Part shown: positions 6,808 to 33,881 of the stretch, piece by piece
Numbering within the stretch: position 1 is the first letter of the stretch
Layout of the letters: each line of letters starts with the position of its first letter
Assembly (NCBI GenBank): GCA_964413845.1
Contig: CAYPTJ010000008.1
Coordinates: 1 to 43,335, forward strand
Length of the DNA: 43,335 bases
DNA from: an uncultured Candidatus Saccharibacteria bacterium
Lineage (GTDB): Bacteria; Patescibacteriota; WWE3; 9FT-COMBO-53-11
Direction: 5' to 3'
Made by a program: the position numbers and the translations under genes
Notes under the pieces: generated by a model
Databases searched by the model: none
What the model was told of the DNA's origin: nothing
What the model saw: the letters and a program-made list of their open reading frames with translations, nothing else

Positions 6808-6909
6808 TGGTGGGCGGAGAGGGATTTCCTTCGACCACGCTCAGGATAAACTTCTCATCCCTCCCAGCCATGGTGAGCCTGCCGAATCCATGGTGGGCGG
6901 AGAGGGATT
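6807..6909. mobile_element. miniature element flanked by a 20-bp duplication that includes the tRNA-Leu 3' end
   Basis: ATGGTGGGCGGAGAGGGATT at 6807 and 6890. The interior has TCCTTCGA..GCTCAGGAT and ATGGTGAGCCTGCCGAATCCA. Confidence 0.65.
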
Positions 6910-9356: not shown

Positions 9357-9605
9357 CTAAATTTTATCTTTGAATAATTTCTTTAGGAATCTCCTTCCCA
9401 CTCCAGATTTCAAATAATGTTCCCGACGCCCCGCTTCCTTAAGAGTTTGATATTCCTCCGAATGCAACAACTCCCAAGGTTTATATCTTTTCGTGAAGCG
9501 CATCTTTCCAGAATTATGCTCTTTCAGTCTTCGTTTAATATCATCTGTTACCCCAACGTAAGATTTTCTGGCCCGAACACTTTTTAATACATAAACGTGA
9601 TACAT
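9357..9605 (-). CDS. stand-alone GIY-YIG nuclease (YhbQ/UPF0213-like)
   Basis: VYVL...YVGVT...RRLKEHN...FTKRYKPW...RE..LKSG.GR signature. Confidence 0.92.
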   Translation of the reverse strand: MYHVYVLKSVRARKSYVGVTDDIKRRLKEHNSGKMRFTKRYKPWELLHSEEYQTLKEAGRREHYLKSGVGRRFLKKLFKDKI

Positions 9606-17290: not shown

Positions 17291-17342
17291 CCTCGCTAAC
17301 GCTCGGTGTAAACTCCTAGCTTGCCCTGAGCGTAGCGAATGG

Positions 17343-32888: not shown

Positions 32889-32962
32889 GGGCCTGTAGCT
32901 TAGTGGTAAAGCAGCGGCCTTTTAAGCCGTTGACCCGAGTTCGATTCTCGGTAGGCCTACCA
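32889..32962 (+). tRNA. tRNA-Lys(TTT)
   Basis: Anticodon loop CT-TTT-AA, 74 nt, CCA. Confidence 0.93.
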
Positions 32963-33018
32963 CCTCACTTCGTTCGGTGTAAACGAGGTTTATCCTGAGC
33001 GAGCGAAGCGAGTCGAAG

Positions 33019-33093
33019 GGCCCTGTCGTCTAGCGGTTCGGACACTGCCCCTTCAAGGCAGAAATACGGGTTCAACTCCCGTCGGGGCCACCA
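33019..33093 (+). tRNA. tRNA-Glu(TTC), with C at position 33
   Basis: Anticodon arm CTGCC-CC-TTC-AA-GGCAG, 75 nt, CCA. Confidence 0.88.
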
Positions 33094-33513
33094 TCCTTCG
33101 AGACGTTCGGCTGAGCTCAGTCGAAGCCCAGGCTCAGGATTGAAAATGTACTTCGTCTATATTCTCCTTTGTGATAAAGACTTTTTCTACGTTGGTTTAA
33201 GTGATAATCTTGAGGAGCGTTTACAAGATCATACCTCGGGCTATAGCCCATACACCCGTAGATTTAGTGAGATCGAACTTGTGCATAGTGAGCGATATCC
33301 TAAACGCTCCCAGGCAGAGAGGAGAGAGAAGCAGATCAAGGGTTGGTCGAAAGCAAAGAAAAAGGCTTTGATTGGTGGGGATAGGGAGAAGCTTAGAGAA
33401 CTAAGTAAATCTAAATCCTGAGCTTGGTGAAGGATCTTGCGGCGGGTACTATATGGTGAGCCTGCGAAGCAGCGAGCTTGTCGAGCTGTCGAACCATCCC
33501 GTCGGGGCCACCA
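33094..33513 (+). mobile_element. GIY-YIG cassette at the tRNA-Glu 3' end
   Basis: 17-bp direct repeat TCCCGTCGGGGCCACCA at 33077 and 33497; palindromic TTCGA..GCTCA / TGAGC..TCGAA ends. Confidence 0.75.
33146..33421 (+). CDS. stand-alone GIY-YIG nuclease (YhbQ/UPF0213-like)
   Basis: YFVYIL.C...YVG.S..L..RL..H...RE.QIKGWS..KK.ALI. Confidence 0.93.
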   Translation: MYFVYILLCDKDFFYVGLSDNLEERLQDHTSGYSPYTRRFSEIELVHSERYPKRSQAERREKQIKGWSKAKKKALIGGDREKLRELSKSKS

Positions 33514-33515
33514 AG

Positions 33516-33881
33516 CTAAGCTAGAGACGAAGTGATATCGGTATAGTGCTTAATCTCAGGAGGACCACCCTCAGATAGGATAACCGCCACCGCATCAATC
33601 CTTGCTGCCTCCCGATCAAATCCTTGAGAAGTCAAATAGTACTGTGCCGCGCGCTGAAGCGCCTTAAGTTTGTGGTAGTTGATCGCTCCCAGTGGTCCAC
33701 CAAACAGTTGGCTTTTACCACTTCGTGCTTTAACCTCCACAAATACGGTTGTATCCCCATCGCGCATAATAAGATCAATCTCCCCCCAACGCGGAGTTTT
33801 AAAGTTTTTCGCGATAAAGACGAACCCCTTCCTCTCTAAAAATTTTCTTGCCAGATCTTCTCCTTGCTGCCCAATATTCAT
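33516..33881 (-). CDS. yraN: YraN/UPF0102 PD-(D/E)xK family protein
   Basis: G..GED.A..FL, GEIDLI, VFVEVK.R, R.D. Confidence 0.9.
   Translation of the reverse strand: MNIGQQGEDLARKFLERKGFVFIAKNFKTPRWGEIDLIMRDGDTTVFVEVKARSGKSQLFGGPLGAINYHKLKALQRAAQYYLTSQGFDREAARIDAVAVILSEGGPPEIKHYTDITSSLA

Follow-up and report, generated by a model that had tools for sequence, protein, structure and literature searches.

Among the described systems, the nearest published parallel to the locus reported here, closer than REP/RAYT, is formed by the Ssn nucleases and their NTS/SRM hairpin repeats as presented in the main text of the work on SsnA of Neisseria meningitidis (cd10448; Chenal et al. 2025, PMC11893778). 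This nuclease attaches to its hairpin and cleaves single-stranded DNA at a distance of a few bases from it, and the authors liken the NTS-ssnA-NTS arrangement to IS200/IS605 and REP systems, raising the idea of a mobile element without a test; the words "tRNA" and "duplication" have no match in that main text (PMC11893778). Both systems share a single-domain GIY-YIG protein of ca. 90 to 95 aa and oriented hairpin repeats that flank the gene and are dispersed in the genome, but the clade studied here additionally shows tRNA targeting and duplication of the target.

RAYTs are HUH enzymes with strand-transfer chemistry. A sequence-only reading of our locus had proposed a REP/RAYT-like arrangement with a GIY-YIG protein in place of the HUH transposase, and the layout part of this comparison holds: the locus is an integrase-free inserted unit and, like REP/REPIN/RAYT and IS200/IS605, has its gene between inverted copies of dispersed short hairpins and is accompanied by gene-less, REPIN-like pairs. 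The comparison fails for chemistry, target, and duplication, with the HxH (HUH) motif in none of the 63 proteins of the clade described below, no GTAG or CGTC tag, and strict targeting of tRNA 3' ends with a duplication of 15 to 20 bp, while tRNA is not mentioned in the main text of the REPIN paper (for REP/REPIN/RAYT and IS200/IS605, see PMC3116915 and PMC3733652).

Three other systems resemble the locus in single aspects. The minimal UPF0213/Slx1-like GIY-YIG proteins (1zg2, 1ywl, and 6seh) are the best sequence and fold matches of its nuclease and, like it, have no extra domain; in the literature they figure as vertically inherited proteins with a predicted role in DNA repair (PMC1564403), whereas the focal clade is patchy, multi-copy, and found inside an insertion unit. 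The tRNA islands of tyrosine integrases compiled by Islander (PMC4383910) display an intact tRNA gene, a displaced 3' fragment in the same orientation, and a T-loop/junction subsite, but our unit has no integrase and measures only 0.4 kb. Islander rejects candidates that lack an integrase or are smaller than 2 kb (PMC4383910), and such units are therefore discarded by design. Finally, the gene of the free-standing GIY-YIG homing endonuclease SegB of phages T4/T6 lies beside tRNA genes, and the enzyme cuts inside tRNA genes, though as a phage dsDNA homing enzyme without hairpin ends or a fixed duplication (PMC13096335); the extra DNA-binding domain of the SegB-type homing/UvrC branch is missing from the focal protein, which comprises 91 aa only and matches Slx1/UPF0213 first. 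A literature search at the level of listings and abstracts found no description of a tRNA-targeting GIY-YIG hairpin element.

A nuclease gene between inverted hairpins behind tRNA-Glu

The window, i.e., the whole analyzed stretch of 43,335 nucleotides, contains an intact tRNA-Glu gene whose 3' end recurs downstream (Table 1). The two copies of the 17-mer TCCCGTCGGGGCCACCA are 100% identical and lie 420 bp apart, which for such a repeat within 500 bp has a chance of about 3e-8. They enclose 403 bp with a single ORF of at least 60 aa (33140-33421) that would encode a GIY-YIG protein (PF01541, E 1.5e-15) of 91 aa from the ATG at 33146 or of 93 aa from the TTG at 33140. This bears out the earlier description of a 17-bp tRNA-Glu 3'-end duplication around about 400 bp, with inverted palindromic motifs at the ends and a GIY-YIG gene as the sole and integrase-free content; the two PF00589 genes of the genome sit on other contigs. 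The left motif is compound, with one hairpin within the loop of another, and an extra copy outside of the element (32993-33019) abuts the 5' end of tRNA-Glu. Beyond the second repeat copy lies yraN (33516-33881) on the opposite strand, and in Rfam the cut-off was reached by two tRNAs only. The observation that both GIY-YIG genes of the window abut tRNAs is correct as far as adjacency is concerned, but the second gene belongs to a different lineage and layout: it is 40% identical and located before tRNA-Gln and after a broken tRNA 5' piece.

Table 1. Coordinates of the focal element and of related features in the window and, where marked G000, elsewhere in the same genome
Feature	Position	Strand	Basis
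Gene-less copy: 19-bp duplication of the tRNA-Leu(TAA) 3' end (6891-6909, 6808-6826), 64 bp, two inverted hairpins	6808..6909	-	
GIY-YIG genes in contact with tRNAs (side observation)	9357-9605; G000 C22:7490-7741, C53:22770-22970, C45:17888-18094		
Tandem-tRNA spacers with hairpins (side observation)	32963-33019, 17291-17342; G000 C15:8064-8112		
tRNA-Lys/tRNA-Glu spacer: short left-type and right-type hairpin, outside of the element, no duplication	32963..33019	+	
Target gene tRNA-Glu(TTC), intact, CCA encoded	33019..33093	+	ARAGORN; Rfam RF00005
17-bp repeat, copy 1 (tRNA positions 60-76)	33077..33093	+	
Left-end hairpin TCC-TTCGA...GCTCA-GGA with second hairpin nested in its loop (33109-33128)	33094..33139	+	DNA fold -7.9 kcal/mol
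GIY-YIG nuclease gene, single-domain, 91 aa, UPF0213/Slx1-like	33146..33421	+	ORF, Pfam, model
Inner right hairpin, inverted relative to the left one, overlaps the stop codon	33416..33434	+	
Right-end hairpin TGG-TGAGC...TCGAA-CCA with expanded loop	33454..33496	+	DNA fold -8.0 kcal/mol
17-bp repeat, copy 2 (tRNA 3' fragment), 2 bp from the yraN stop codon	33497..33513	+	

Filled and empty alleles in one population

Contigs of 4 of the 24 listed public runs, all of them groundwater or aquifer samples of one year that may stem from a single campaign, were checked for the two possible alleles. In two of the four runs, one contig each (X13 and X17) joins position 33076 directly to 33497 and thereby skips exactly 420 bp while keeping one repeat copy, the 17 bp of which fit either side. 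The shorter flank of these contigs extends over 255 and 172 letters with 0 and 2 differences from the window, respectively. The filled allele is spanned by a 463-bp contig in X3, and partial pieces of it were found in X13, X14, and X17. An assembly artefact caused by the 17-bp repeat is excluded because contigs with unique sequence on both sides span both alleles. The focal element is therefore a true insertion polymorphism with a clean empty allele, which could be ancestral or could have arisen by slippage between the repeats. Read depth in X3, with 11.5 inside of the element and 26 to 32 in the flanks, fits a mixed population, though this ratio is no measure of the share of cells. Excised circles, which the sequence-only reading had suggested as a check, did not turn up: no circle joint was present in the contigs of the four runs, where rare forms drop out. 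The lone RNA run, considered for expression, contained a share of 0.05 of the words.

Empty tRNA-Glu-yraN junctions, which were to be looked for in relatives, do exist. Seven of the nine family relatives have yraN, which adjoins tRNA-Glu in five of them (the other two show an N gap and a contig end, respectively), and all five are devoid of both the nuclease and the duplication. The empty state is therefore the norm in the family and a deletion remnant is unlikely. None of the five carries the element or its remains, and the condition under which the sequence-only reading would have fallen, a larger integrase-bearing island at this site in relatives, did not overturn it. One of the five (L112) has a recombinase-domain gene at the tRNA-Glu site that matches neither the nuclease nor the element. 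We note that the reading direction of this gene (L112:2003-2854; PF13408 and PF07508) takes it into the tRNA-Glu 3' end and that serine recombinases are said not to target tRNA genes (PMC4383910).

Two other features of these flanks and samples deserve mention. The tRNA-Lys/tRNA-Glu pair (32889-33093) faces yraN in the window, and tRNA-Lys follows yraN on the same strand in 7/7 family relatives with yraN (accompanied by tRNA-Glu in five); the orientation in the window is a local inversion that is also present in the empty allele. Furthermore, loose ends at 33107 and 33140 in X3 and X13 lead to a more abundant organism in which the same nested left hairpin is immediately followed by a right hairpin, without the gene or a tRNA.

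A minimal nuclease of the Slx1/UPF0213 type

The 91-aa protein consists of the GIY-YIG domain alone, with Y5, Y15, G17, R25, H29, and E61 invariant in 32 rows of its alignment. Its best solved sequence relatives are the UPF0213 proteins 1zg2 (BH0048) and 1ywl (EF2693) at E 1e-15, and a structure model (pLDDT 92) retrieves the same two proteins first in Foldseek (best E 5.5e-5), followed by Slx1 (6seh), with I-TevI (E 0.85) and UvrC far behind. Sequence and model place the protein in the Slx1/UPF0213 branch of the GIY-YIG superfamily and not to the homing branch.

Indirect evidence, namely the UPF0213 proteins as best solved relatives and the absence of the C-terminal NPxW motif typical of cd10448, also suggests a GIY-YIG branch different from that of the Ssn nucleases. 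A GTC tag 5' of the stem was found at 3/34 clade loci versus 33/36 loci of an NPxW-type comparison group. The published SRM search pattern matched 0/34 clade loci, but it also matched 0/36 loci in this NPxW-type group that served as positive control.

Gene-bearing and gene-less copies in the same genome

Four of the 43 tRNA genes of the genome have a 17- to 20-bp duplication of their 3' end around inverted hairpins. Two of these copies carry a nuclease gene, at tRNA-Glu and at tRNA-Trp (18-bp repeat), with proteins that are 61% identical, and two are gene-less, at tRNA-Leu(TAA) (64 bp, 19-bp repeat) and tRNA-Ser(GCT) (117 bp, 20-bp repeat). The idea that the tRNA-Leu copy had been inserted in flipped orientation was dropped, since its right end agrees with those of the 57-58 subclade introduced below. 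Eight further left/right hairpin pairs were found within 700 bp of each other, three of them at tRNAs with repeats of 19 to 20 bp and five away from tRNAs with repeats of at most 7 bp; the long loops of the focal pair kept it from matching the pattern.

The hairpin core TTCG(A/G)..GCTCA occurs 70 times in the genome versus 7 to 22 times in five order-3 Markov simulations, and a strict 13-mer has 24 genomic copies, the most among 61 genomes compared, versus 0 for the reversed control. Over 56 genomic copies, the three positions of the outer stem are paired in 35, 42, and 40 cases versus shuffle means of about 20 and maxima of 30 to 32, while pairing at the next three positions does not exceed the shuffles. 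This covariation hints at a conserved short stem, to which we attach no probability, and it is only a hint because the hairpin copies are related.

The co-occurrence of motif and GIY-YIG genes that had been suggested was recovered across 61 relatives, where the numbers of both correlate with a rho of 0.73 (among kin that are not independent) and the 15 genomes without a match hold 0 to 2 motif copies. The hairpin is not private to the nuclease clade; up to 17 copies occur in genomes without the clade, and it is shared with other GIY-YIG groups.

All six GIY-YIG genes of the genome touch tRNAs. Three of them have a broken 5' part of a tRNA on one side and a complete tRNA (Gln, Ile, and Asp) on the other, and one follows tRNA-Pro behind a different hairpin. 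The spacers of tandem tRNAs listed in Table 1 begin, directly behind the CCA, with a left-type hairpin and end, directly in front of the following tRNA, with a right-type one; they contain no duplication.

A nuclease clade at nine types of tRNA genes

Among 233 proteins from genomes, relatives, and metagenomes, the focal protein falls into a clade of 34 rows (SH-aLRT 96 in a quick tree of about 97 to 98 columns), of which 11 were seeds picked for their layout. The left and the right motif each flank the gene in 29/34 loci, versus 0 and 6 of 52 control windows, respectively, and they do so in 20/23 and 18/23 loci when only non-seed loci are counted. At 20 clade loci, an intact tRNA is followed by a downstream fragment with a repeat-to-repeat distance of 363 to 433 bp, involving eight tRNA types, and at 13 of these loci the fragment is exact over tRNA positions 61-72.

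A prospective set of 31 loci was chosen by protein score alone, from which two already seen were dropped. Fourteen of the remaining 29 show an intact tRNA with a fragment (12 exact over positions 61-72 and two imperfect), four have a tRNA without a fragment, and 11 have no intact tRNA within 350 bp. Ten of these 11 loci, two of which are located at contig edges, show by eye a tRNA-like fragment behind the right hairpin, and the left hairpin of the tRNA-less loci follows a short match to the end of the fragment; they look as if a later island had pushed the tRNA away.

In total, the full layout is present at 34/63 loci (25 exact and nine imperfect) and comprises nine target tRNA types, Glu, Trp, Asn, Pro, Ser, His, Tyr, Gln, and Lys, after three ARAGORN calls of "Thr" had been reassigned to Asn. 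The locus is a member of a recurrent family of tRNA-targeting GIY-YIG elements. Fragments start at T-loop positions 57-60 and end at 73-77. A subclade of 19 rows (95/92) has starts at 57-58 across five tRNA types, where two rows with a mismatch at 59 were still assigned to 57, and 12 of the other 13 start at 59-60; the position of the junction follows the protein tree.

The distribution of the clade is patchy, with 5/134 genomes of the class, none of nine family members, and 2/42, 25/401, and 1/4 genomes of other classes. No relative was confirmed among 66 pattern matches in viral contigs, and annotated phages and plasmids yielded distant hits only (at most 46% identity, and at most 42% for phages), so no vehicle was found.

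How the element may insert, and rival explanations

We favor, with a probability of roughly two in three, that the locus is a tRNA-targeting mini mobile element composed of a hairpin, a nuclease gene, and another hairpin, which would be inserted at the tRNA 3' end by its own nuclease with joining by the host. The tRNA is kept whole, and its last 15 to 20 bases, from the T-loop to the discriminator/CCA, recur behind the element. The anatomy, the empty allele, the other copies in the genome, the nine target tRNA types, the fixed junction positions, and the patchy spread are observed, and the steps of movement are inferred from them. By analogy to the Ssn nucleases, the protein may bind the end hairpins as folded single-stranded DNA, and it could nick the folded tRNA gene at its two unpaired parts, T-loop and 3' tail, which are the junction sites; such nicking would agree with the preference of Slx1-like proteins for junctions. 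Since the chemistry of GIY-YIG enzymes is hydrolysis without strand transfer, host functions must join the ends, presumably through annealing, fill-in, and ligation with the tRNA fragment as the overlap. Gene-less copies would have moved in trans, and the nuclease gene might be transcribed from the promoter of the tRNA. Several points speak against this reading: no two near-identical elements were found at different tRNAs, so that retargeting is visible only at ca. 60% protein identity; 15 of the 29 prospective loci lack the full layout; nine of 34 fragments are imperfect; and the hairpin also occurs outside of the clade.

The best surviving rival, though an unlikely one, is an att-like satellite, i.e., a circle carrying a tRNA fragment that re-enters a tRNA of the same type via a tyrosine recombinase of the host or a helper or via general recombination, with the nuclease as cargo or stimulator. 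A tRNA with a 3' fragment is the signature of an island, for which the T-loop/junction subsite is common (PMC4383910), the genome has two PF00589 genes, and close proteins of the clade tend to share the tRNA type. In 6/7 tested cases, the imperfect fragment pairs worse with the 5' half of the host tRNA than the functional copy does, which would not be expected of a fresh duplication, and the fragments of L006, L007, L146, and L147 resemble a different allele of a tRNA of the same type. None of the 19 mismatches in eight loci falls at position 61, 62, 71, or 72 (naive p 4.5e-4, calculated without L283, which is mismatched at 61 and 63). These fragments could have been carried along by the element, or else the tRNA gene was exchanged at a later time. 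Against a satellite, the clade uses nine tRNA types with junctions that track the nuclease tree and not the host, no fragment of a foreign type was found behind an intact tRNA in 34 loci, and an attP of ca. 250 bp (size from PMC4383910) would hardly fit into 403 bp; moreover, the hairpin ends and the intact nuclease would lack an explanation. A duplication made anew at each insertion would fit most copies, and an att-like arm travelling with the element would fit a minority.

Still less probable is a homing-type spread, by which rare ancient insertions would have been passed to empty alleles through nuclease-stimulated, SegB-like gene conversion involving flanking homology and lost by repeat slippage without true transposition. 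Filled and empty alleles do coexist in near-identical strains, and the GIY-YIG enzyme SegB, whose cuts lie inside tRNA genes, depends on recombination functions (PMC13096335). However, the ends are present at four tRNAs of one genome although homing does not generate additional sites, homing enzymes need no conserved ends (PMC1564403), and the protein is of the Slx1 and not the homing branch. Homing may still operate as a second route within the population.

We consider it very improbable that the element arose by an RNA route, in which a reverse transcriptase acting in trans would copy the tRNA trailer, an element RNA with a 5' end defined by 3' processing of the tRNA, into DNA at a T-loop nick, as in Penelope-type target priming. 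Precursors of tRNAs are cut at positions 73-76 during 3' processing, which is where the left junction lies, and the gene is always co-oriented with the tRNA (none reversed among 63 loci). The host genome has one RVT_1 gene (G000 C23:309-923; PF00078, E 8e-22, 384-aa frame), but such a gene occurs in only 1/5 element-bearing genomes (the others being 84% to 100% complete), the presence of inverted hairpins at either end suggests that both DNA strands are recognized, and foreign-looking fragments are not predicted. Just as improbable and largely refuted is the origin of the unit by deletion from a larger integrase island, of which REP-like hairpins and a nuclease gene would have survived fortuitously: although tRNA-Glu(TTC) is an island site in the family, as illustrated by L112, and several clade loci sit behind apparent displaced tRNA ends, the repeat-to-repeat distance is constrained in all 20 loci across eight tRNA types, no recombinase remnant was found, L112 has no match to the nuclease, and a clean empty allele exists in the same population.

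Returning to the mini mobile element, we propose tentatively, and with slightly more doubt than confidence, that a hydrolytic, Slx1-like nuclease of 91 aa recognizes tRNA genes by their folded shape, nicks T-loop and 3' tail, and inserts hairpin-ended DNA via host repair behind many tRNA types with a duplication of 15 to 20 bp, including gene-less cargo in trans, which would represent a new class of mobile elements. If the nuclease proves to drive insertion, the element would be categorically new, an outcome that we regard as possible while leaning marginally against it; otherwise, it would be a variant of the Ssn-like hairpin-flanked nuclease unit. The mobility idea of the Ssn paper becomes testable with the exact ends, the defined target, the natural empty allele, and the gene-less derivatives seen here, and the focal locus contributes the clean empty allele and the gene-less copies to the question of nuclease-driven insertion. 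An insertion driven by the nuclease would mean site-specific integration without an integrase, a DDE transposase, or an HUH transposase, by one of the smallest site-specific integration systems known; it would also give a role to part of the so far unassigned UPF0213 family and reveal a class of tRNA-borne elements lost to the integrase and size filters of island finders.

Related arrangements at other loci

A few loci show arrangements beyond the simple unit. In L139:1-600, a gene-less and then a gene-bearing unit are arrayed in tandem, and both have a tRNA fragment of their own, and L160 has a new left hairpin behind the downstream fragment. A sister GIY-YIG group is found behind tRNA-Gln 3' ends (L009, L028, L088, L124, L170, and L231), where the CCA of the tRNA serves as hairpin stem; a 3' duplication is present in some of its copies and absent in many. 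At L007, L082, L149, and L274, tRNA genes called as Thr by ARAGORN contain inserts of 200 to 230 bp in the anticodon; by eye, their acceptor stems resemble those of tRNA-Asn, and the inserts have the look of group I introns.
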